This document shows positions 30,757-42,452 of a stretch of DNA of 64,000 bases, piece by piece. The stretch spans positions 88,885 through 152,884 of the IMG/VR virus record IMGVR_UViG_3300016657_000126. One strand, given 5' to 3'. Position 1 is the stretch's first letter; every line of letters starts with the position of its first letter. The notes beneath the pieces are model-generated. The model saw only the letters and a list, made by a program, of their open reading frames with translations, had not been told where the DNA came from and did no database searches. This stretch comes from a virus. The position numbers and the translations under genes were made by a program.

Positions 30757-32445
30757 TCAGTGCCCGAAGCATTTCTCGATGAAGGCATGCCTCTCGCTAT
30801 CCGGCACGTCCTTGTATTGCAACACCTGATCAAGCTTCTGCTCCGCCTGCTCACGACGTTGCGCCAGGCGTTTGAAGTCTATCTGGCCTAGATCTCCGGT
30901 GACGCGGAGCGGAGTGTAACGCGGCGGGGGCGAGTAAGAGAGCAGCCCGCGCGAGGCGATGTCTTTGAGATGCCGGACGGCCGTGGCCTCGGTGAGCAAG
31001 ACCTGGTCGGCCAGGTTCGCCAGATCGACCTCGAATGATCCGTCGCTCTTGGCCTGCCCGGCCGCCAGCACCGCATTATAGTATTTGTGGAACTGCTCGT
31101 CCTCACCACGCCCAAGGAATTTAACTGTGGCGATGCGCTGCTCCACCGGACTTGTAGCCAACACATTCGCGCCCAGCAGAACACTGCGGATGGCGCGATG
31201 CGAGAATGTCGATACCCCGCTGTGCTTCTCGATGACCTCGGCAGATGCGCAAGCCAGCCCGGTCTTTCGGTCGGTGAGCGAGCAGACCGCGTTGTAGAAC
31301 GCTGCGATATCCGCGCGGCTCGGATGCCCGTTGTCCAGAAACCGACGCTGGGTTGATATGGAGTCCCGGGAATAGAGCGTGACGCCGCGGCTTGGTTTGC
31401 CGTCGCGCCCGCCTCGACCGAGCTCCTGAGCCAGCGCCTCGATGTTCGGCGGAATATCGCGGTGCACAACCAGACGAACGTCCGGTTTGTCGACACCCAT
31501 GCCGAACGCATTAGTGGCTACCACGACGTCGGCCTTACCCGTCATGAATAGGTCCATGTTCGCTTCCTTCTTCTTCGGGTCCATCTGGCCGTGGTAGATG
31601 GTCGTCGACAGCCCCACCGCGCCGAGCGCTCGCTGGAGATGCGAGGCAGTCTCCTCGAGGCGAGTGATCGTGGAGCAGTAGACGATGGACGGACCATTCG
31701 CCTCTTGGATCAGATCCACCATCTGATTGATGTCGCGATAGTCGTCCGCAGTGAACGCCAGGTTATCGCGGCGCAGATAGTGCGACAACTTTCGGGCGCG
31801 CGACATGCAGAGGACACGTCGGATATCGTCTTCCACCTCGGGTGGGCATGTGGCGGTGAAAGCCGAAACAACCTTGGGAACCGAGGCGGTGATGTAGTCT
31901 CCGATCTTGCAGTAGAACGGGCGAAAAGTATCCGACCACTGCGACAAACAGTGCGCCTCGTCGATGGTCACCATGTCCGGCTTCACCGTGTTCAGCGCCG
32001 CCATGAATGCATCGTTTCCGAGGCGCTCCGGAGAGACGTAGAGCATCTGTAGCTGCCCAGACATCCACTGGCGCATCGTGAACTCGTTCTCGCCGGCGGT
32101 GCGGTTACCATTAACGGTTCCGGCCGCCACTCCCATCAACGTGAGCTTATTCACCTGGTCCTTCATCAGCGCCAGCAGCGGGCTGAACACCACGGTCTTC
32201 CAGTTGAGGGCGAGCGTTGGAATGATGAAGCAGGCTGATTTTCCGCCTGACGTATTGATGACACAGAGCAGGTCCTGCCCGCCGAGGATCGTCGCAATCG
32301 CGCTGTCCTGACCTGAACGAAGAGCTGAGAATCCAAGGTCGCGAATAACGCGCGGAAGGGCGCGCATGCCGGCGGAAAGCCACTCGACGTTGACGACGTT
32401 GTTTCTGATCGCGTAGCGATCGTGACCTACCTGGGCGGTTGACAT
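30757..32445 (-). CDS. recQ: RecQ-family DNA helicase
   Basis: LRSGQ, TSGGKS, SPLLALMKDQV, YVSPERL, DEAHCLSQW..FRP, TAT, YHGQM, ATNAFGMGVDKPDVR, QELGRGGRDG; start reassigned to MSTAQV. Confidence 0.92.
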   Translation of the reverse strand: MSTAQVGHDRYAIRNNVVNVEWLSAGMRALPRVIRDLGFSALRSGQDSAIATILGGQDLLCVINTSGGKSACFIIPTLALNWKTVVFSPLLALMKDQVNKLTLMGVAAGTVNGNRTAGENEFTMRQWMSGQLQMLYVSPERLGNDAFMAALNTVKPDMVTIDEAHCLSQWSDTFRPFYCKIGDYITASVPKVVSAFTATCPPEVEDDIRRVLCMSRARKLSHYLRRDNLAFTADDYRDINQMVDLIQEANGPSIVYCSTITRLEETASHLQRALGAVGLSTTIYHGQMDPKKKEANMDLFMTGKADVVVATNAFGMGVDKPDVRLVVHRDIPPNIEALAQELGRGGRDGKPSRGVTLYSRDSISTQRRFLDNGHPSRADIAAFYNAVCSLTDRKTGLACASAEVIEKHSGVSTFSHRAIRSVLLGANVLATSPVEQRIATVKFLGRGEDEQFHKYYNAVLAAGQAKSDGSFEVDLANLADQVLLTEATAVRHLKDIASRGLLSYSPPPRYTPLRVTGDLGQIDFKRLAQRREQAEQKLDQVLQYKDVPDSERHAFIEKCFGH

Positions 32446-32945
32446 TTGAGATCGAGAAATTTTTGAACGACTCCAGCGTAAGACATGAGCGTCCTGACTT
32501 CGTTTTCTAGGCGAAGGGAGGCGACGTGGTTGCAGTAATTTGTGGTTCCGTCGAAGAGCAGTTCCAACGCTTGCGGCGTGACCGCGAGACGTCGGGTAAC
32601 ATCCCACGGCGTGGTCGCGCATAGGTCATCGATCACGCTCCGAATAGCCGTGCGCCAGAAATCGCCATAACCACGGCGAGCGAGTGACAGGCGAAGAGGC
32701 GCAGCCAGCGGCTCCGGGTGGATGGTCCACACGCGCGAGTTCACCGCATCAGGAAACAGTTCGACCCACTTATCGACGGCCGCAAACAGCTCGCCAAGAT
32801 TCAGGCACGGCACGGTCAGGTCCCGGATGAACCAGGGCTCGGTGCCGCCCGTGAAGTGCCCGACCATGAAAGTGCCGTCGCACTGATCAAGCCGGTGCGG
32901 AACCGATCCATCGGGGCGCACCCAGAGAAGCAACGCGTTACCCAT
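32427..32945 (-). CDS. Hypothetical protein
   Basis: Start reassigned to MGNALLL; tiles with its neighbours. Confidence 0.6.
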   Translation of the reverse strand: MGNALLLWVRPDGSVPHRLDQCDGTFMVGHFTGGTEPWFIRDLTVPCLNLGELFAAVDKWVELFPDAVNSRVWTIHPEPLAAPLRLSLARRGYGDFWRTAIRSVIDDLCATTPWDVTRRLAVTPQALELLFDGTTNYCNHVASLRLENEVRTLMSYAGVVQKFLDLKCQPPR

Positions 32946-33339
32946 TGATGGAAACCAGCGCGTGCTTGAGCGCTTGAAACACAAAAACCTGCGGCTTGAT
33001 TGCCTCGTGCGCAGCCAGCTCAGCGACCTGCGCAAGAGGGACCACCGCGAGGAAGTTGCTCGGTAGCACCGGTTCGATGAATTGGACCTCGAACACATCC
33101 AACGCGCGCACTGGGCGGTCGAAGGCCACGCTGCTGGAGAACCGCGAGACGCTCATGAAGAAAGGAATGATGAGCGCCGGCGTGGTAAATTCCTTCAGCG
33201 GAAAAACGTCCCGCATCAGATGATAGTCTTCGGACAACGGACGAATGTCTCCGAGCCTGGCGAGCGCGCGCGTAGGCGCGTGGACGCGCATTCGCACGCG
33301 CACCAAAGCTCTGTCAGTCTTGTTCTTTTGGTCAGGCAA
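32938..33339 (-). CDS. Hypothetical protein
   Basis: 133 aa tiling ORF. Confidence 0.6.
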   Translation of the reverse strand: MPDQKNKTDRALVRVRMRVHAPTRALARLGDIRPLSEDYHLMRDVFPLKEFTTPALIIPFFMSVSRFSSSVAFDRPVRALDVFEVQFIEPVLPSNFLAVVPLAQVAELAAHEAIKPQVFVFQALKHALVSING

Positions 33340-33763
33340 CGATGGAAGTAAGTTTAACGGCTACAAATACACGGCTCTCGAATCCAGCCATCATCAAAGC
33401 GCACTCGCGCTGAGAAGCCGAAATGTTCCGGCAAAACGAGCCGGCATCGTCCGTGTCTACGAACTCGCGAACCACGAAAGCTCCGTCGGCGCCGGGTATG
33501 GCGGCGTCGAAGAATATCATCGGAGTTCCGATCTCCATCTCCTCGGCAAAGAACCGAATGGCTTTTTGCTCGCTGCGTTTCGCTAGCGCGAACGCGGGGA
33601 TGACGTAGACCTTGTCGAGAATTACCCGGCAGTTGCTGGGTTCGAAGCCTAGCTTCCAACGTGCCTGGCTGAGGATCTCCGTCACCGAGTCGGAACGCGG
33701 GACGCGGAACGCCGAAGCCAGAGATATGGCCGCGGCGGTTTCGGATAATTTGGGACGCTTCAT
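33332..33763 (-). CDS. Hypothetical protein
   Basis: 143 aa, ATGA overlap with the RecA-like gene. Confidence 0.6.
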   Translation of the reverse strand: MKRPKLSETAAAISLASAFRVPRSDSVTEILSQARWKLGFEPSNCRVILDKVYVIPAFALAKRSEQKAIRFFAEEMEIGTPMIFFDAAIPGADGAFVVREFVDTDDAGSFCRNISASQRECALMMAGFESRVFVAVKLTSIVA

Positions 33764-35229
33764 TCGAGAGCGCTGGGGTCTGCGGCGGCGACGAGCGCCG
33801 GCTGAATTCGTAGTCCGGCGGTCTGTACCGCCTCCGCCTTCTTGATGTCTTCTGGAAAATACTCCGCGTAACCTTCGATACGCAGAAACTTTCCAGTCGA
33901 TATGACCGCTTCGCGATTGTTATGAAATGCAACGGCTATGTCGTGCGCGGATCCGCTGAACACGCCGAGCTCCTTCGAAGTGTAGCGCCGATTTTCCACA
34001 ACAAGACCGAGCAGTTTGTTGTCGAGCAGCAGATCGCAGAGAGCGAAGTCGAAGTCCATGGCGCTCTCTTGAAAGACGTCGGTGTCTCCGGTCATCTCGC
34101 TGCGCAGCACGGCTTGGATACGGCGACCTTCCGGGCCAAAGGACTGCTTGGCGGCCCGCATGATGATCTTATTTCCGATGACCGTCTCACCCACCTTGTA
34201 TTGGCCGGCGCGCACCATCGTGAGCTGCCAAGCTGCGAGTTGATTGAACGCGCGCCCTCCGCGGGTGGTTTTGTTGTAGAGCGCGGACGATTCGGCGTCC
34301 ATCGGTTTGCCGCGCCCGGACATGTCGATCTTCTCCGTCTGATGATTGCAGCAGATCAAAATGACATTGTTAGTGGACAGGAACGCCGGCAGGCGGCGCG
34401 CAAAGGCGTGCGCCCACTTGGCGTGCAGCAAATTCGACCCCTCGCCCGTAGCGGTGTAGTCTTCCTTTGCCAGCGATTCGGCGCTCTTGCCGTAGCCGTA
34501 GAAGCCTTCGGCCTCGGCATCCGACATCAGGCGACTCCAGACGTCGCACACGATGACGATGGGCGTGTCGATGGGAACGCAGATACCTGTCTTGTCCTTC
34601 TTGTTGTTCAGGCGTCCGCGGTAGGCGTCGACAGCATCGATCATGACCTGCTCGAATTCACGCAGAGAGAAGGCCTGCGTCCAGAGAACTTGGTCGGCCA
34701 GTTTCTCGCTGACTTCGCGATTGTTGGAGAGACAGCGCCGCGCGCGCTCGACCGGCATGGGCTTGTTTTCGGTCTCGATGTAGACTCCGGGGCAGCCTTG
34801 GCGCATCGCAGCGCCCATGATCTCGAAGCACGTGGTCGTCTTGCCCGTGGCCTCCTGCGCCGTGAGCGTGCCCATGGTGGCTTTCGGCATGCCGATCGTG
34901 CCGTAGAGATACTGCAGGGCGAAGTGGTGAAACGGCAGGAACGACGTGCGCACTTCACTGAGTGTTCGGAAATTGCTCGGGCGATTTTTCCGACGCTCGC
35001 CCAGGGCGCGAAGCACGCGAACCGCCGCGCCGGCACCATCCGCTTTTTCCTTGTCGGCTATCTGAAACGAGAACTGCGGGTCGAAGATGGGCGTCAACCC
35101 GGTGGCCTTGATGAGCGTCTCGATAGGCTGAAGGGCGGGATCGTTTGGCATCCCGGCGACCGGCGCCTCCGCGGTCGCAGCCGACTTCGTCGAGGTCTTT
35201 TTTGTGGGGGACTTTTTGGCTTTGGCCAT
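33760..35229 (-). CDS. Divergent RecA/UvsX-like recombinase
   Basis: GMPKAT, Walker A AQEATGKTT, YIETE, Walker B IVIVCD, CNHQTEKI, TRGGRAF. Confidence 0.85.
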   Translation of the reverse strand: MAKAKKSPTKKTSTKSAATAEAPVAGMPNDPALQPIETLIKATGLTPIFDPQFSFQIADKEKADGAGAAVRVLRALGERRKNRPSNFRTLSEVRTSFLPFHHFALQYLYGTIGMPKATMGTLTAQEATGKTTTCFEIMGAAMRQGCPGVYIETENKPMPVERARRCLSNNREVSEKLADQVLWTQAFSLREFEQVMIDAVDAYRGRLNNKKDKTGICVPIDTPIVIVCDVWSRLMSDAEAEGFYGYGKSAESLAKEDYTATGEGSNLLHAKWAHAFARRLPAFLSTNNVILICCNHQTEKIDMSGRGKPMDAESSALYNKTTRGGRAFNQLAAWQLTMVRAGQYKVGETVIGNKIIMRAAKQSFGPEGRRIQAVLRSEMTGDTDVFQESAMDFDFALCDLLLDNKLLGLVVENRRYTSKELGVFSGSAHDIAVAFHNNREAVISTGKFLRIEGYAEYFPEDIKKAEAVQTAGLRIQPALVAAADPSALE

Positions 35230-35232
35230 AGT

Positions 35233-35266
35233 GAAAGAAGAAGGGGTGAGGTTACCCTCACCCCTT
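35233..35266 (-). terminator. Intrinsic terminator
   Basis: aaggggtgagg-ttac-cctcacccctt with a minus-strand CTTCTTTC tail. Confidence 0.7.
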
Positions 35267-35309
35267 GAGTGTGTCCAACGATTACGTCCTACTCAAACGC
35301 GCTGATTTA

Positions 35310-37445
35310 TCAGCGATTTCCCGCGCGCTTGAGCAATTCGCCCATGCGGTGGATCTGGTTGGTATCCAGAGACTGGCCAGTCTTCGCGGCCTGGTCATTG
35401 AACGCGAGCAGCTGCTGGAGTTCGCTGTTCTCCTCGGGGCTCAACGGAGCGCCAGTCGCGCCGGGAGCGATGGTGGCGTTCTGCTGGATGGGCGGCTGCT
35501 GTTGGGGCGCCTGCTGCACAGCGGGCTGGATGGTCTGCTGCTGGGCGCCCTGAGCTACCGCGGCGTAGCCGGGCATCGCGGTGATGGCGCTCCACGGGAG
35601 GCTGTTGTCGCTGGGGGCGAACACCGCCGCGGGGTTAGTGCGCGCGAAGTTAACCGCATCGGCGATGGTCATGGGCGTTTGCATGACCGCCCCGTTGACC
35701 GCGGCGTAGATCATCACCGCGGGCGGCTGCTGCACGGGCGGCTGCTGCACGGGCGGCTGCTGCACGGGCGGCTGGTAGGCCTGCTGGACCGGCGCCTGTT
35801 GGATGGGGGCCTGCTGCGCGGGGGCGCCGAAGCCAGCGGGAGCGCCGCCACCGAAGCCCGCGGGAGCTCCGCCACCGAAACCGGCAGGAGCACCGGCAGG
35901 AGCACCGAAGCCAGCGGGAGCACCGGCAGGAGCACCGCCGAAGCCGCCAGCGGGAGCGCCGCCACCGAAGCCCGCGGGAGCACCGGCAGGAGCACCGAAG
36001 CCAGCGGGAGCACCGGCAGGAGCACCGCCGAAGCCAGCAGGCGCGCCAGCGGGAGCGCCGCCGAAGCCGCCCGCGGGAGCTCCGCCACCGAAACCGGCAG
36101 GGGCACCGCCGCCGAAGCCAGCGGGAGCACCGGCAGGAGCACCGAAGCCAGCGGGAGCACCGCCACCGAAGCCCGCGGGAGCTCCGCCACCGAAACCGGC
36201 AGGGGCACCGCCGCCGAAGCCAGCAGGCGCGCCAGCGGGAGCGCCGCCGAAGCCGCCAGCGGGAGCGCCGCCACCGAAGCCCGCGGGAGCTCCGCCACCG
36301 AAGCCAGCGGGAGCGCCGGTGGGGGCACCACCGAAGCCGCCAGCGGGCGCACCGCCGAAGCCACCGACAGGAGCGGCGCCCGCGGGGGCACCAAAACCGG
36401 CGGGAGTGTTGCCAAAGCCGCCCGCGGCAGCGCCGACAGCGGCACCAGGAATAGCGCCAGGCGCGCCGGTCATGCCGGTGCCTCCGCGCACATTGGCGCG
36501 GTGGCCGCAGGCGATGTGGATCAGCTCAAGCGGAAAGGCGCCGTCGCCGACCAACATGTCGACGATTTCCTGATACGACGGGATGCGCCAGATATCGAGC
36601 GAGCCGAGGTCGTAGCGATTGGCAAGCGCCTCCGGACCGACGGGAAACACGCGCTCGGTGCCGAGACAATTCTCGCGCTCGGTGAAGTGGAAGCCGAGGT
36701 AGGGAAATCCTCCGCTGTTGGGCGCGGGCGGAACGATTTTGATGCAGGTGAGCAAGCCGGTGTTCGGGTGCGTCACGTCGCCGAGCAGGAACTGTTGGAA
36801 GTTCGGGTCGCGCGGCTGCTGACCGTAGGAGGTGGGCCAGCTGAGCGTCTCCTTCAGCGCACCGAGCGACTGCGCCGAAGTCACCAACAGACCCTGCGTG
36901 AGTTGACCCTTGATTTGGGCGACTGCGTTCATCGCCGCCTTGACCTTGGGACGGCCGGGAAGCGGAACGATCTCCTTACCCGGACGGCGGGGATCCGCCT
37001 GCTTTTTGGTGAGACCGGCGAAGCGCGCATCGAGGCGAGCGGTGCGGGCGAGGTCCATGACCGGGCAAGGAGCCTGATCGGCGGTGATGCCGGCGAGGGT
37101 GAGCTGCTTGGGCGAGGTGAAGCTCATGCCGGAACGGCCGAGCCACTGATAGACGTAGCCGAGCACGAACCAGGAGGTAAAGGCCGGCGTGCCACCTTTG
37201 ACCTCGTTGTCCACGCGCCCGCTGTGCATGTCGCGGTAGGGGGCGAACGAGGTTTTGCGCGCCGCGTCGTGCGGGCTCATGTTGTCGTCCAGCGCCGGAA
37301 GGATGCGCGCCCACATGGGCTCCTTCTCGGTGGGGAAGATGGCGCGAACACCATCCTTGAAATACCGACCGGACGAATCGAATTCGTCGTCGACGACAGC
37401 AGCGGAACCAGCGGCAATGCGGTTGTTATTGGGAGCAGTAGACAT
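35310..37445 (-). CDS. Folded N-terminal domain plus long GFG/APAG low-complexity region and GYF_2-like domain (possible SSB/recombination mediator)
   Basis: 711 aa ORF between DNA polymerase and the RecA-like gene. The function is inferred from position only. Confidence 0.75.
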   Translation of the reverse strand: MSTAPNNNRIAAGSAAVVDDEFDSSGRYFKDGVRAIFPTEKEPMWARILPALDDNMSPHDAARKTSFAPYRDMHSGRVDNEVKGGTPAFTSWFVLGYVYQWLGRSGMSFTSPKQLTLAGITADQAPCPVMDLARTARLDARFAGLTKKQADPRRPGKEIVPLPGRPKVKAAMNAVAQIKGQLTQGLLVTSAQSLGALKETLSWPTSYGQQPRDPNFQQFLLGDVTHPNTGLLTCIKIVPPAPNSGGFPYLGFHFTERENCLGTERVFPVGPEALANRYDLGSLDIWRIPSYQEIVDMLVGDGAFPLELIHIACGHRANVRGGTGMTGAPGAIPGAAVGAAAGGFGNTPAGFGAPAGAAPVGGFGGAPAGGFGGAPTGAPAGFGGGAPAGFGGGAPAGGFGGAPAGAPAGFGGGAPAGFGGGAPAGFGGGAPAGFGAPAGAPAGFGGGAPAGFGGGAPAGGFGGAPAGAPAGFGGAPAGAPAGFGAPAGAPAGFGGGAPAGGFGGAPAGAPAGFGAPAGAPAGFGGGAPAGFGGGAPAGFGAPAQQAPIQQAPVQQAYQPPVQQPPVQQPPVQQPPAVMIYAAVNGAVMQTPMTIADAVNFARTNPAAVFAPSDNSLPWSAITAMPGYAAVAQGAQQQTIQPAVQQAPQQQPPIQQNATIAPGATGAPLSPEENSELQQLLAFNDQAAKTGQSLDTNQIHRMGELLKRAGNR
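35719..36430 (-). repeat. Coding tandem repeats: about 22 (A)PAG(G)FG(GG) units plus QQPPV units
   Basis: Plus strand shows repeated ccgaagccagcgggagc / gcaccggcaggagc and ggcggctgctgcacg units. Confidence 0.9.
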
Positions 37446-37462
37446 GATGAGAAATTAAGATT

Positions 37463-37687
37463 TTAAGTGGGATTCTGACTTTTGCGTTCGGACAAAACCT
37501 GGCGCGCTTTTGTTAGGTTGGCGCGACCGGCCGTGATTTTTGCCTGCGAGCGAGAACGCCCGCCTTTGGCTCCGCTGAGACTCAGGAAATTGCGAGTTTC
37601 TTGGGACAGCTTTGGACCTGCCGACTTTTTCCCTGAACGAGAACGGTCGGCGGCGCTCTCGCGTTTACGGGTTTGAAGTTTAGCCAC
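37463..37687 (-). CDS. Small basic protein
   Basis: 74 aa, K/R-rich, GAKGGRSRS.AK..A.RAN motif. Confidence 0.6.
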   Translation of the reverse strand: MAKLQTRKRESAADRSRSGKKSAGPKLSQETRNFLSLSGAKGGRSRSQAKITAGRANLTKARQVLSERKSQNPT

Positions 37688-37700
37688 GCTGACGAGTTCA

Positions 37701-37731
37701 ACAAGCCGCTTGTTATAGTCAAGCGGCTTGT
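37701..37731. promoter_or_regulatory. 12-bp inverted repeat over the polymerase stop codon
   Basis: acaagccgcttg-ttatagt-caagcggcttgt; contains minus-strand TTGACT. Confidence 0.5.
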
Positions 37732-40700
37732 CGGAATTCTTCCTTCAACCAGACCGGATCGTTCGCCCAAGTCGGGTCGTCGAGCAGCTTGAGCTGGTCC
37801 TTCGATGGGCGCGACGACCAGGCGAGATTGAACTCGCCGGACGCCGGATAGAACCAGACGCGCCCATGGTCGAACCACGTGTTCTTCTCCGTCATGTAGA
37901 TCTCGTGCAGCCTAGAGACAAGGAAGCGCTCCTCCACCGGGCAGATGGACACACACGAGTCGTAGAGGATGGTCATCAGCCTGGCGTGCATACCGCGCCG
38001 ACGATACTCGTCCACGAGGTTGATGCCGGCGCGCGCTGAAGTCGCAGCTACGGACTCTTGGCACGGGAAGTTGCGCGCCACGCGTCCCATCGCCGACAGC
38101 TGGGCGCGGCGATCGCGCCCGCTGATGGAACCACCGAGCATACCGTAACCGGCGAAGTGGCGCCGGCGACCAGACTGCGCGACGAGGAAACCCGGATGCT
38201 CAGGCGCGCGCTGCAGATCCTCTTCCAGCCATCGAGTAGCCACCGGCTCGCGCTTTGCGATCGCGCCGAGGATCTTCGAGCCGGTGCCCTCCGGCGGCTT
38301 GAATCCGGCGTCGGACTCGATCTTGCGCTCAAGGGTGGAGTCTACCGCGCCATAGGCGGTGTTGGAGACCAGCACGCCGTTCGCGGTGAAGCGATGCCGC
38401 GGACCGGCGTTCACCAGATCGTAGACCGGCTCCAACGTGAGCTCGAACCCACGGGCACGGAGCTCCGCGATCAGGACATCGCGGGGACGACCTCGGTAGC
38501 CGTTGACGCCGAGTATCGCCGCAGGATTTCCTCCAGCGGCGTTCCCTTGTCGAACAACGCCCTTGCATGCGACGCCGAGCACTGGATTTCCGGGTGGGTG
38601 GCCATGAACTCGCGAACTATTTTGGAGACGTTCGGGCGCGATGCCTTGGTCCTCGCGATTTCGGCGATTTCCGCCGCAGTCTTTCCCTGCTTCAGGAGCT
38701 TGACCAGATAGTTGAACGAGAGAGCCGAGTGCGCAGCGTGCAGACGCCTGGCCTCCGCGTAAGTGTTCTCGGCTTCCGGATTCGCCGACGACTTCTTCCA
38801 CTGAGCCAGGATTTGAGCTTCGGTCCAGCCCCTCCAGACAAGCTTGCGCACCTGAGCCCGAGCGAACCCCACCTCCGGATGCGCCGCCAAGAATGCGTCC
38901 GCCTTCGCGAAATCCGAATTCGCCCGTAGCTGCTCCTTGGTGCGATACTCCCCGGCATTCCACTTCTCCACCAGCTGCTCCTCCGTCAGACCGGAGAAGA
39001 GCAGATTGCGGACTGTCCTGAACGCCAGCTTCACCTCCGGATGCGCCGCAACGAACGCTCGCGTCTTCGCTCCAAATGATCGGATCGAAAGACGCGTGTT
39101 CTCGAGATTGGTCCGACGGTCCACCAGGCGAAGATTGTCCGGCGAGTAAGGGCCGTCGTTGTCGATCCGATCGAAATCCTTCCCCTTGAAGGTCTCGCCC
39201 GGCCACTTGCTGAGCGCCCACGAGATGAAGTGCTCCTTGTCCTGAAACAGCACCTGGATTCCCCGCCCCTTGTAGTTGTAGGAGCTGGCGTGCGTCCACG
39301 TGTTGCAACGCTGCTTCATGGACTGAAACCGCGTGCGAAGCCGATAGCGAATTTCGTCCTTCTTCGGCGCCTGACACGCACAACGAATGCCTTTGCCAGA
39401 TTCCAGATGGTGTAGCCATTTCTGACGCACCACCTCGCAGCGCGGGCAAAATGTCTGCACCGCCAGATTGCCTTTGCTGTTTCGAAACAGCGCCGGCCTC
39501 AGTTGCAAACCCTGCAAGCCGAGCTTGGCCAGCCTCGCTGCCAGTTCGGGCGAGATCGAGACCTGCCAAAGCAGCTTCTCCGAAGAAGACCTCTCTTCCG
39601 TCCATAAGCCAGACACCGTGGTCGACGGTGGCACGGAGTCCTTGGTATTCGATGATGTGCTGTTCACCTTTGCAGATAAGCCCTTCGTGGCGGACCCAGT
39701 CAACTCCGTCCCACAAAAGATCGAAATCTTTAGATACTTCCTTGATTTTCTTTACACCATTGTTTGTTAATACTCCCACATCAGCCGGCAAGCAACTGAA
39801 GTTTCCCACCTTTCCAATGCCGTCGCGGTCCTTCTTCTTGTTGAGATACTCGCGGGGCTTTTCCTGCACCCATTCCGCCAGCGACCAGTGAAGGTCGTGC
39901 TTGGGGTGGCGCAGCTTTCCGTCTTTGCGCAAGAGCTCGTGTTCCTCGACTTTGCGGATCACCTTGCCCTCCTTCATGAGGTGCATGATGGCCTGCGGGT
40001 TTCGATTACCCTCGGGGATGCCGCAGTCAGCGTCGTAACGCAGGCGAACCGGCATCGTCTCCGTCCCTTCCTTAACGAGACCAAACTGAGTGTCCGGCTC
40101 GGTCATGAGCCGGATCAGATTCTCGTCGCCGCTCATGAACGCCTTACCGCGGATCTCGGCCGTGTCATAGTCATACTCGACGATGCACCAGCCCTTCGAT
40201 CCGGGCACTGGAGGAAGGCTGCTGATGTCGACGCACCCGCGGATGGACGGGATGTTCTTACCCACCTTCTCCACGCGGTCGTCGAGTTTCGGATACTGCA
40301 TCGCGCCGACCAGATATTTCTCGAACTTCTCGGGCAGACGGTTGGCTTCCTTCAGTTCGAGCAGCAGCTTTCCGACGCCCTCCGATATGCGCTTGTTGAC
40401 GTAGCTCGGCCAGTTAAGCGTATTCGGTTTCCAGCTACGAGGACGCCCGGTGTCGGTCGTGCTATACTGACAGTGCACGCGTTGATCGCTGCACAGCCAG
40501 AAGTGAAGACCGTTCTCCTTGGTCACCTCGCCTGTCTCTTCGTCGATTTCGGGCTCCTTCAGGAACGCCTTGCTCAGGTTACCGACGGCATTGAGGTTCA
40601 GCAGCTCTCCGATCGTCTCGTGCTTGTCCGCGAGAATCTGCAGCGTCTGCTTGTCGGTGGACGGCGTGAACTCCTTCTGCCTAGCCGGGGTCATGGCCAT

Positions 40701-42452
40701 GACCTTCTCCCACGAAGTTGTCGGCAGGCCCTTCTCTTTGTTGTTGGTCGATTTCACCGGAGTGAGGCCGATCACGTCAAAGAGCCAGCGCCGCATCATC
40801 GGAGCGCTTCGGATGTTGAACCCCGGTGCCTCGCGCATGTGGTGGAAGAACGCCAGCGCCTGGTCCTTCTTTTCAGGCCCGACCAGGTCCAGCAACTTCC
40901 GCTCGGCCTCACCGTGCTTCAGCGCCTCAGGGCTGGTCAGCAGCTGGAGACACTCCAGACCGACGGTGAGCCCACGCATGCCGAACGCCCCCTGCAGGAA
41001 GCGGAGAAACAGCGTGCGCGCCTCGTTCGCCACCCGCTGCTTAAATCGGATGTTCAGCTCCTGCGTGGCGAACGTAAACAGATCACGCAGCTCGTCCATG
41101 CGCTGCACGTTCATCGGAAGTCCGACGATCGCGAAGTTGGTGAACACGTCGCTCACGAACGGGAGGAACGTGTTCATGAAGTAGGCCGCGGTGCCTTCGG
41201 CGACCATCCTGCGCAGCAAATACGGCCATGCGCGGTAAGGCGTCAGCACGTCGTAGCAGCCGTAGGGCTCAATCAGTTTGTCGGGCACGTAACCGAAGCC
41301 GTCGTCCTCGCTCTGGCGGTTAGCCTTATACCAGAGCATCAGCTCGATGTCGTAGCGACCAAACGGCGTGTAGCGGATAGACAACTCTTCCAAACCGCCG
41401 CCGACGTCTTCGTCGACTACCTGCTGACCGAACTCAGTGTCGAACTCCGTGCGTTGATACCACTCCAGATCCAGGAATTTATCCATCCACGGGTAGTCCG
41501 CGGAGATGTGATGACCTAGATAGCGCGTCTGCTTTTTATTCAACACGCGGCCGAGAATTTGTCCGCAAGTCTTGTAAGGCGCGTTCATCACATACTCCGC
41601 GCGCTCATTCATGAACTGAAAGAAGAACGCGCGCGTCGGTGTAGGCGCGGCTTGGAAACTCCTCAGAAGACCATCCACGTGACTGCGGCCTTTCCACTCA
41701 CAGTCCACGGAGAACAGGCTGTATTTCTTTTCCTCCCACTCACGCACAACATTCTCCATCTGCTCCGTGTTGCGCACGAAGGTCATCTCGGAGGGAATCA
41801 CGTCAACGACCACGCCGTTGATTTGATCCCACATCCGTTTCACCTGCTTCATGTCCACATTGAAGCGCTCGATATACTCCGGCTTGAACACCGGCAGCAT
41901 GATGTCGGGCATCAGGTAGACGCGCGCGTTGACTAGCGCCGAGTGAAACCAACCACCCTGCAAATCGCTGATCGACCCCTTCACATCCACCAACACATCG
42001 AACGCCGGCTTTCCAAGGCAGACGATGATCTTCGGCTGGACGCGCTTTATCTCGGCGAGCAACGCCGGGGTTGCCATAGCGATGGCGTCGCGGTCGGGCT
42101 TCTTGCGCTCTTCCTTTGGGAGGAGCCACTTCACCAGGGCCGTGAAGTAGCAGTCGTCCATGTCGATCGCCGCGTTGCGCGCGCAGTCGGTGAGAATGAC
42201 GCCAGACCCACTCTTCAGATAGCGCGGCTTGTCCTCGATGGAAGCTCCGGTGAACGTGCGCTCCCGGTCCATCGCCTCGTCCTCCTGCAGCGACGTCTGG
42301 ATGAACATCACGTCGCTCGGCGTCTTTCCCGCCCCGGCGACAAACAAGACGTCCGACCAGCGGCGCGTGGTCTTTACGTCATGCGGATGTTCCGTGGGTC
42401 TCGGTGTAGCCAAAGCCACCCGAGGTTTGAATGAGCGGCGTTCTTCAAACAT
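37719..42452 (-). CDS. Family A DNA polymerase with N-terminal UDG-like domain and 3'-5' exonuclease, intein-containing
   Basis: UDG-like EIKRVQPKIIVCLGKPAF; Exo SVDCEW, GHHISAD, YGCYD; TDTGRPRSWKPN; motif A YDYDTAEIR; motif B K.GNFS/TAYG split by the intein; RNFPCQ; motif C ILYDS. Confidence 0.93.
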   Translation of the reverse strand: MFEERRSFKPRVALATPRPTEHPHDVKTTRRWSDVLFVAGAGKTPSDVMFIQTSLQEDEAMDRERTFTGASIEDKPRYLKSGSGVILTDCARNAAIDMDDCYFTALVKWLLPKEERKKPDRDAIAMATPALLAEIKRVQPKIIVCLGKPAFDVLVDVKGSISDLQGGWFHSALVNARVYLMPDIMLPVFKPEYIERFNVDMKQVKRMWDQINGVVVDVIPSEMTFVRNTEQMENVVREWEEKKYSLFSVDCEWKGRSHVDGLLRSFQAAPTPTRAFFFQFMNERAEYVMNAPYKTCGQILGRVLNKKQTRYLGHHISADYPWMDKFLDLEWYQRTEFDTEFGQQVVDEDVGGGLEELSIRYTPFGRYDIELMLWYKANRQSEDDGFGYVPDKLIEPYGCYDVLTPYRAWPYLLRRMVAEGTAAYFMNTFLPFVSDVFTNFAIVGLPMNVQRMDELRDLFTFATQELNIRFKQRVANEARTLFLRFLQGAFGMRGLTVGLECLQLLTSPEALKHGEAERKLLDLVGPEKKDQALAFFHHMREAPGFNIRSAPMMRRWLFDVIGLTPVKSTNNKEKGLPTTSWEKVMAMTPARQKEFTPSTDKQTLQILADKHETIGELLNLNAVGNLSKAFLKEPEIDEETGEVTKENGLHFWLCSDQRVHCQYSTTDTGRPRSWKPNTLNWPSYVNKRISEGVGKLLLELKEANRLPEKFEKYLVGAMQYPKLDDRVEKVGKNIPSIRGCVDISSLPPVPGSKGWCIVEYDYDTAEIRGKAFMSGDENLIRLMTEPDTQFGLVKEGTETMPVRLRYDADCGIPEGNRNPQAIMHLMKEGKVIRKVEEHELLRKDGKLRHPKHDLHWSLAEWVQEKPREYLNKKKDRDGIGKVGNFSCLPADVGVLTNNGVKKIKEVSKDFDLLWDGVDWVRHEGLICKGEQHIIEYQGLRATVDHGVWLMDGREVFFGEAALAGLDLARTGSEAGQARLAGFATEAGAVSKQQRQSGGADILPALRGGASEMATPSGIWQRHSLCVSGAEEGRNSLSASHAVSVHEAALQHVDARQLLQLQGAGNPGAVSGQGALHLVGAQQVAGRDLQGEGFRSDRQRRPLLAGQSSPGGPSDQSREHASFDPIIWSEDASVRCGASGGEAGVQDSPQSALLRSDGGAAGGEVECRGVSHQGAATGEFGFREGGRILGGASGGGVRSGSGAQACLEGLDRSSNPGSVEEVVGESGSREHLRGGQASARCALGSLVQLSGQAPEAGKDCGGNRRNREDQGIAPERLQNSSRVHGHPPGNPVLGVACKGVVRQGNAAGGNPAAILGVNGYRGRPRDVLIAELRARGFELTLEPVYDLVNAGPRHRFTANGVLVSNTAYGAVDSTLERKIESDAGFKPPEGTGSKILGAIAKREPVATRWLEEDLQRAPEHPGFLVAQSGRRRHFAGYGMLGGSISGRDRRAQLSAMGRVARNFPCQESVAATSARAGINLVDEYRRRGMHARLMTILYDSCVSICPVEERFLVSRLHEIYMTEKNTWFDHGRVWFYPASGEFNLAWSSRPSKDQLKLLDDPTWANDPVWLKEEFRQAA
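38361..39794 (-). mobile_element. Intein (478 aa) in polymerase motif B
   Basis: Starts CLPADVGVLTNNG, has block B ATVDHGVW and block F VYDLVNAGPRHRFTANG, and ends LVSN followed by T+1. Confidence 0.92.
38471..39703 (-). CDS. HNH-type homing endonuclease nested in the +1 frame inside the intein (start uncertain)
   Basis: CPRC...CAC zinc motif, SMKQRCN, NYKGRGIQV, DRIDNDGPYSPDNLRL...N, then four ~40 aa helical repeats. Confidence 0.85.
   Translation of the reverse strand: MTGSATKGLSAKVNSTSSNTKDSVPPSTTVSGLWTEERSSSEKLLWQVSISPELAARLAKLGLQGLQLRPALFRNSKGNLAVQTFCPRCEVVRQKWLHHLESGKGIRCACQAPKKDEIRYRLRTRFQSMKQRCNTWTHASSYNYKGRGIQVLFQDKEHFISWALSKWPGETFKGKDFDRIDNDGPYSPDNLRLVDRRTNLENTRLSIRSFGAKTRAFVAAHPEVKLAFRTVRNLLFSGLTEEQLVEKWNAGEYRTKEQLRANSDFAKADAFLAAHPEVGFARAQVRKLVWRGWTEAQILAQWKKSSANPEAENTYAEARRLHAAHSALSFNYLVKLLKQGKTAAEIAEIARTKASRPNVSKIVREFMATHPEIQCSASHARALFDKGTPLEEILRRYSASTATEVVPAMS

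Follow-up and report, generated by a model that had tools for sequence, protein, structure and literature searches.

A predicted gp32-type single-stranded DNA-binding protein with an extreme FG-repeat tail in the replication module of a large uncultured phage

Introduction

The locus considered here raises the question of what a long, charge-free phenylalanine-glycine (FG) repeat does in a protein that is encoded among the replication genes of a large phage. The analyzed stretch of DNA (hereafter, the window) comprises 64,000 nucleotides, positions 88,885 to 152,884 of the IMG/VR record IMGVR_UViG_3300016657_000126, a virus record of 196,897 bp that is rated complete by CheckV; the GC content of the window is 58–67%. 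The gene in question (35310..37445, minus strand) is a single open reading frame (ORF) of 711 amino acids (aa) plus the stop codon, and its start codon is confirmed by the conserved N-terminus of the family to which the protein belongs. A 733-aa ORF on the plus strand (35265–37466) was rejected as a shadow frame because only the minus-strand product is kept in homologues. The original prediction, made from the DNA letters, placed the gene between a polymerase and a recombinase, guessed from this position that the N-terminal ~320 aa are a single-stranded DNA (ssDNA)-binding protein (SSB), and singled out an essentially uncharged tract with about 22 regular GFG motifs followed by Q/P repeats. 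We argue below, relying on predicted structures, that this gene very probably encodes the SSB of the phage, a member of the structural class of T4 gp32 in which the core is followed by a long modular tail.

A Predicted gp32-Type Core

The core of the protein (residues 30–320; 36486..37358, minus strand) is predicted by the combination of AlphaFold2, Foldseek and VIA-align to adopt a gp32-like OB fold and to bind ssDNA. AlphaFold2, run with a 131-sequence alignment, modeled residues 1–325 with a predicted local distance difference test (pLDDT) score of 89.9 and a predicted template modeling score of 0.87. A structure search of the N-terminal part for an OB fold, as proposed in the original prediction, returned RB69 and T4 gp32 chains as the top six Foldseek matches in the PDB, the best being 2a1k_B of RB69 (E 8e-4, prob 1.00) and 8gme_A of T4 (E 9e-4, prob 1.00). 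VIA-align gave a Z score of 11.5 against 1gpc (195 of 218 residues, root-mean-square deviation 4.5) and 11.3 against 2a1k, with the next unrelated chain at 2.9. Among the predicted viral structures of BFVD, phage SSBs are likewise found near the top (E 4e-8 to 1e-4), the matches named ssDNA-binding protein coming from Vibrio, Bacillus, Lactobacillus, Agrobacterium and other phages. By contrast, the OB domains of bacterial SSBs of the E. coli type reach only Z 2.0–2.6 against the phage core in VIA-align and represent a different fold class. Thus, the guess from gene position is borne out at the level of modeled structure, the core fold being common to the phage protein and to T4/RB69 gp32 (PF08804; 1gpc, 2a1k, 8gme).

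At the sequence level, the family-invariant motif G-D-V-T-x-P-x-x-G is placed on D-V-T-C-P-W-E-G of gp32 in an hhalign comparison with the T4 protein, which is weak (E 0.021, probability 2%). The conserved aromatic residues of the core (Y70, W92, F89, F93, Y99, W101, F216, and F219), together with the basic residues R47, R71, and R277, are compatible with an ssDNA cleft, and we infer that the core coats ssDNA. It is preceded by a disordered N-terminal peptide (residues 1–29; 37359..37445, minus strand; pLDDT below 50 for residues 1–22) with the family motif [RK]-L-x-G-G-S, in which the respective columns are conserved at 80% (G13), 64% (G12), 63% (S14), and 44% (L10). The gp32 motif at this end is a basic cluster of Lys and Arg, unlike that of the phage family, but the peptide occupies the position of the gp32 cooperativity segment and, by analogy, might correspond to it.

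The two proteins follow the same three-part logic, i.e., a short N-terminal peptide, the core and a C-terminal part that binds partners in gp32 and probably also in the phage protein, and both function together with a UvsX-type recombinase. Their tails differ: that of gp32 is acidic and short, at roughly 50 residues, and that of the phage protein extends over 390 residues, which include the FG array along with a folded module and a helical hairpin.

Several results weigh against the assignment to the gp32 class. No meaningful match to the 711-aa protein emerged from Pfam, PHROGs or a PDB profile search, its sole Pfam lines being compositional (Extensin_1, 17 bits against a cut-off of 105). PF08804, the gp32 family profile, matched neither this protein nor any other part of the genome, and PF00436 (bacterial SSB) did not match this ORF. 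The His/Cys3 zinc site of gp32 is not conserved in the phage family: among 131 sequences, there is no conserved His/Cys set, only a single Cys column (C313). Furthermore, another small ORF of the genome (113 aa) specifies an SSB-like OB protein and is the only PF00436 match there (24.8 bits against a cut-off of 26). Given the gp32-fold match in the models and the failure of the family sequence and zinc comparisons, we conclude that residues 30–320 are, as modeled, a distant structural relative of gp32.

The lack of a gp32 sequence match and of the zinc site, along with the presence of the 113-aa PF00436-like ORF, leaves room for an alternative under which the gp32-like fold has been reused, for an RNA-binding regulator or for a decoy that engages SSB-sensing host defenses, whereas the small OB protein is the real replicative SSB. 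However, this small protein (G000:C1:68614-68853, minus strand; L003:1441-1782) has no tail, is encoded outside the window and outside the replication module, and lacks a counterpart in a related complete 212-kb phage (L002), in which no PF00436 SSB was found; the position of the larger gene between polymerase and recombinase is, in contrast, fixed. The 394-aa ORF directly downstream of the small one is presumably a DNA methyltransferase, judging by eye from its translation. All things considered, such reuse of the fold appears very unlikely, and it is highly probable that the 711-aa protein is, as predicted, a gp32-type SSB.

An Unannotated Family With Variable Low-Complexity Tails

A phmmer search with residues 1–325 against 1.8 billion representative sequences identified 234 clusters at E ≤ 0.001, and among the 150 matches listed, the domain is N-terminal in all, in proteins of 240–834 aa. 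The only source label seen for the family is ‘hypothetical protein’. A tblastn search of 50,697 GenBank phage records detected no relative even at E ≤ 1, with either the core alone or a lower-GC relative as the query. Where contig size is recorded, family members are found on contigs of 188–212 kb (P0008, P0005, P0065, P0160, and L002), which suggests that these phages form a coherent set of large, uncultured viruses with this replication module in common.

The tails that follow this core are A/P-rich and of low complexity, with lengths of 90–412 aa in most of the 149 relatives on which the tail counts rest; the few shorter or absent tails mostly come from truncated or mis-delimited proteins. 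All relatives whose C-terminal end is intact possess a low-complexity tail together with the conserved helical hairpin and, in most cases, a small GYF_2-like module. Motifs of the FG type (GFG, PFG, AFG, and GFAPQ) are present in 14 of the 137 representatives for which this state was counted, and in other relatives the corresponding sticker residue is Met (PQPM, PGMGM) or Tyr (QGYG, VYQQP). On a FastTree phylogeny of the cores, which is weakly supported in places, the FG-rich state undergoes at least 8 changes.

Bacterial SSBs share the general plan of the phage protein, with an OB core, a disordered G/Q/P linker of biased composition that is not conserved in length or sequence, and a conserved tip, although their tails are far shorter. 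The phage protein lacks the tip of the D-D-D-I-P-F type. In 44 of the 149 relatives (for example, P0007, P0049, P0035, P0125, P0119, and L002:7911-9209), an acidic motif D-[IV]-P-[MFYG], such as D-D-D-I-P-M, is present inside the tail, i.e., internally rather than at the C-terminus; it is absent from P0001 and P0003 (the 711-aa protein itself is without it). The motif is closely similar to the bacterial tip, through which host DNA-metabolism proteins are recruited, and may allow the SSBs of these relatives to borrow host partners.

The FG Array

The most conspicuous part of the tail is the FG array (residues 326–545; 35811..36470, minus strand), a G/A/P tract that consists of 89 G, 67 A, 33 P, 22 F, and 9 other residues and from which D, E, K, R, and H are all absent. 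The count given in the original prediction proved exact: there are 22 FG dipeptides, each of them within a GFG motif, distributed between residues 343 and 540 at intervals of 7–12 residues (about 9). In 20,000 shuffles of the 220-residue tract, the mean number of GFG motifs was 3.6 and the maximum 11, and the coefficient of variation of the Phe spacing, 0.15 in the actual sequence, was 0.89 in the shuffles, with a minimum of 0.45. The commonest units are FGGGAPAG (7 copies), FGGAPAGAPAG (4 copies), FGGGAPAGG and FGAPAGAPAG (3 copies each). Tandem Repeats Finder detects a 24-nt period in the DNA of the array and higher-order units of 84–108 nt that are 81–94% alike, and the GC content at third codon positions (GC3) is 0.59 in the array compared with 0.81 in the core.

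As also anticipated, the array is directly followed by a Q/P repeat of PVQQP units (residues 546–575; 35721..35810, minus strand) in which a 15-nt unit is present in 3.7 copies with a 100% match. The repeat numbers might be wrong in a short-read metagenome assembly. The entire region 322–563 is predicted to be disordered, with pLDDT of 36–52 in the full-length model built from an 89-sequence alignment, against values above 90 for the core. There are no acidic residues between positions 326 and 597, and the protein is the extreme of the family among the 149 relatives in its uncharged run of 273 residues and in its overall content of charged residues (3.6%). The disorder, the zero charge and the even spacing of Phe fit the description of the tract as a sticker-and-spacer disordered region.

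Cohesive Linker, Passive Spacer or Selective Phase

We propose the following scenario, which rests in large part on analogy. The SSB would be the main helix-destabilizing protein of the phage and would work with the adjoining polymerase, UvsX-like recombinase, helicase and primase. The role of the core would be to coat ssDNA. The conserved peptide at the N-terminus may aid the cooperative binding of neighboring molecules, as in gp32, and the C-terminal hairpin may recruit replication and recombination partners in the manner of the acidic tail of gp32 and of the bacterial SSB tip. The 220-residue charge-free array would then be a greatly expanded version of the disordered SSB linker, its G/A/P spacers stemming from GC-rich codon bias. 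With copies of the protein aligned on ssDNA, evenly spaced Phe stickers and flexible spacers could create weak multivalent cohesion between tails, which would raise cooperativity and could gather the SSB and its partners at replication forks and recombination intermediates, in a layer resembling a condensate. Gain and loss of units would lengthen and shorten the array quickly, and its length could therefore be a tunable, non-essential property.

This scenario has precedents in both proteins that the phage SSB resembles. In E. coli SSB, both phase separation and cooperativity over long range are driven by the disordered linker (PMC7584906; bioRxiv 10.1101/2022.01.17.476650; PMC12143593). Purified T4 gp32 forms droplets in vitro, and condensates of gp32 and UvsX have been obtained in vitro with a crowding agent (PMC11951158). 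It has also been shown that FG domains depleted of charge are cohesive and that shorter spacers strengthen the cohesion (PMC4283134, PMC8245513, PMC9918544). In this respect, the phage tract is like a cohesive Nup98-type FG domain, a disordered charge-depleted tract with spaced FG motifs, and its spacing of about 9 residues is shorter than the 12 of the regularized Nup98 repeat (PMC9918544). There are also differences: Nup98 contains about 50 GLFG motifs in polar N/Q/S/T spacers, compared with 22 GFG motifs in G/A/P spacers here, and its FG domain is joined to a pore scaffold, that of the phage to a protein that binds DNA. Transport receptors, moreover, do not exist in bacteria. The likeness to Nup98 is only a compositional analogy and not homology.

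Several results speak against a sticker function of the array. The nearest relatives on the tree of the cores are not FG-rich, and in P0003, an otherwise identical protein of 591 aa, the array is shorter by 115 aa and there is one PVQQP unit fewer, so that 10 GFG motifs are present rather than 22. An array that the nearest relatives lack, and that is less than half as long in P0003, cannot be essential and is as such dispensable. The original prediction named, as telling against its proposal, a lack of condensate formation combined with absence or dispensability of the repeat in close homologues. The second half of this is what is observed for the FG array, but not for the low-complexity tail, which all relatives with an intact C-terminal end possess. 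The tail traits also follow the GARP index of the core, used as a proxy for GC content (rho 0.52 for G+A+P, −0.55 for charge, and 0.60 for length, with kinship uncorrected), and the 711-aa protein has the highest index in the family; thus, mutational drift may account for a large part of the composition. Moreover, among engineered Nup98-type repeats, the less hydrophobic GAFG version did not phase separate at 10 uM (PMC9918544), and the motif here is GFG, in just 22 copies. Finally, no other FG-rich protein was found in the genome, making the array unique there; co-partitioning of FG-tailed phage proteins was considered and ruled out on the same ground, there being no second FG-rich sequence in the genome.

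Many of these facts are readily accommodated if the array is a passive, slippage-prone spacer that tethers the C-terminal modules of a phage SSB, without sticker function or condensate, its composition and regular Phe spacing being produced by GC bias and the recent amplification of a single founder unit. The array consists of a few near-identical units organized in similar higher-order DNA repeats, its GC3 is lower than in the rest of the gene, as expected of a young amplification, and the halved and missing arrays, the dependence of tail composition and length on the GC proxy and the behavior of the GAFG repeats all agree with this explanation. GC bias can indeed supply the G/A/P spacers, given the correlation of the tail composition with the proxy. 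However, it cannot supply Phe, the codons of which are AT-rich whereas the genome has 61–65% GC. Phe is kept in every unit, and no length change breaks the reading frame: in each of three protein pairs that are otherwise identical, compared at the protein level, the members differ by in-frame repeat units alone, the two pairs besides that with P0003 by one GGAPA unit and by one 20-aa PGM block. This is the kind of length variation that the original prediction had proposed to look for among relatives, although the differences may be either real polymorphism or assembly collapse. Hydrophobic or aromatic stickers (FG, PFG, GFAPQ, QGYG, VYQQP, PQPM, and PGMGM) within uncharged spacers occur on many separate branches and in unrelated repeat units, which looks like selection on a property rather than a single accident. 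A purely passive spacer is accordingly the less likely explanation, although one with a real share of the probability.

The original prediction also raised the possibility of a selective barrier, and the array could in principle condense the ssDNA-bound protein into a true FG phase, a membrane-less, selectively permeable compartment that shields DNA intermediates from host nucleases or defense sensors and admits phage enzymes, akin in a prokaryotic virus to the barrier material of the nuclear pore. Such a nucleoporin-like phase around the replicating DNA would exclude host nucleases and defense proteins and would be a membrane-less counterpart of the phage nucleus. The phage is large, and a charge-free tract with FG motifs about 9 residues apart resembles the cohesive Nup98-type domains that form selective phases unaided (PMC4283134, PMC8245513). 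Nevertheless, the barrier idea finds no support: the genome encodes no other FG protein or recognizable ‘FG-philic’ carrier, and searches of it with the phiKZ nuclear-shell protein and with a tubulin profile, a weak test, detected nothing; most relatives lack the array but have the same replication module, and GFG is less hydrophobic than GLFG and present in only 22 copies (PMC9918544). We consider both the barrier around replicating DNA and the shielding compartment extremely improbable.

Weighing these lines of evidence, we favor, with moderate confidence, a gp32-type SSB whose expanded sticker-and-spacer linker, by analogy with other SSBs, tunes cooperative self-association on ssDNA and possibly forms condensates. 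For the narrower proposition that the FG array itself adds functional cohesion or condensation, the chances seem to fall slightly short of even.

C-Terminal Modules

Beyond the Q/P repeat, the tail contains two small folded modules. The first (residues 576–634; 35544..35720, minus strand) is predicted with pLDDT of ~90 as a beta/alpha domain with strands at 578–583 and 608–611 and a helix at 594–603, and its predicted fold may be GYF_2-like. Of the eight ESM Atlas structure clusters closest to it, five are GYF_2 (PF14237), aligned over residues ~572–640, with TM-scores of only 0.28–0.42 over 52–85 residues. The GYF_2 profile gave no match at E ≤ 1 in 10 family members, nor at E ≤ 10 genome-wide, and we take the resemblance as a lead only. 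Eukaryotic GYF domains bind proline-rich peptides, and the phage module is located between proline-rich stretches. A small module of this type is found in many relatives, with two copies in P0013 and P0018; both copies are flanked by proline-rich repeats in these proteins, an arrangement that suggests a network of interactions between the module and proline peptides.

A second disordered linker, rich in Q, P, and A (residues 635–666; 35448..35543, minus strand; pLDDT below 50 for 636–661), connects this module to a C-terminal helical hairpin (residues 667–711; 35313..35447, minus strand) with helices at 670–689 and 695–709 and pLDDT of ~90. The hairpin is conserved throughout the family, with the motif P-L-[ST]-x-x-E ... 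L ... R. Alignment A1 (5 sequences) shows no variation at P667, L668, E672, L704, and R707, and alignment A3 (89 sequences) almost none at L704. The hairpin is probably a partner-binding module.

Gene Neighborhood

The placement of the gene given in the original prediction holds. Upstream lies a gene for a fusion of a uracil-DNA glycosylase, a 3′–5′ exonuclease and a family A DNA polymerase (37719..42452, minus strand; Pfam UDG, DNA_pol_A_exo1, and DNA_pol_A), 1577 aa in length, with a primase beyond it; directly downstream is a UvsX/RecA-like recombinase (33760..35229, minus strand; phrog_97 at 5e-23 and Pfam RecA), which is followed by a DEAD-box helicase. The same order, i.e., primase, polymerase, family gene, recombinase and helicase, is present in L002. 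The 131-sequence alignment contains no segment of sufficient conservation for use in a metagenome scan; a scan with the 5-sequence alignment yielded 4 short loci only, and with two metagenome loci (L005 and L007) included, the UvsX-like gene is directly downstream of the family gene in all four loci compared (the window, L002, L005, and L007), whereas the upstream polymerase is seen in the window and in L002.

GC-rich hairpins are located directly after the polymerase stop codon (37700–37730, minus strand) and after the SSB stop codon (35241–35266, minus strand). The latter, between the SSB gene and the UvsX-like gene (35241..35266, minus strand), has an 11-bp stem and is terminator-like according to a consensus scan. 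Given that the hairpins bracket the SSB gene, it may be transcribed or attenuated as a separate unit. A very basic, Lys/Arg/Ser-rich 74-aa ORF (37463–37687, minus strand) occupies the space that separates the polymerase and SSB genes; the gap at the same position in L002 is just 14 nt, suggesting that this ORF, if real, is specific to the phage. In the window (33354–33932 and 32427–33098, both on the minus strand), in L005 (L005:3310-3753) and in L007 (L007:2645-3094), small ORFs that show no family match separate the UvsX-like gene from the helicase gene, and a recombination mediator could be among them.

Implications

Disordered SSB linkers and SSB condensates are already known, and the FG tail described here is an extreme, fast-changing form of the disordered linkers known in such proteins. 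What is new is an unannotated gp32-fold family that is absent from the cultured-phage records, along with the several modules of its tail and the FG array in its extreme form. The analysis thus assigns a function, that of the probable SSB of uncultured phages of ~190–210 kb, to a family of 234 representative clusters. It would further imply that SSBs with the gp32 fold have independently acquired the plan of the bacterial SSBs, in which a core is followed by a long disordered linker and a conserved interaction end. In this family, nature has combined one conserved core with a range of linkers that vary in their stickers (Phe, Tyr, or Met), length and charge; the family hence provides a ready-made test set for the effects of the linker on cooperativity and condensation.

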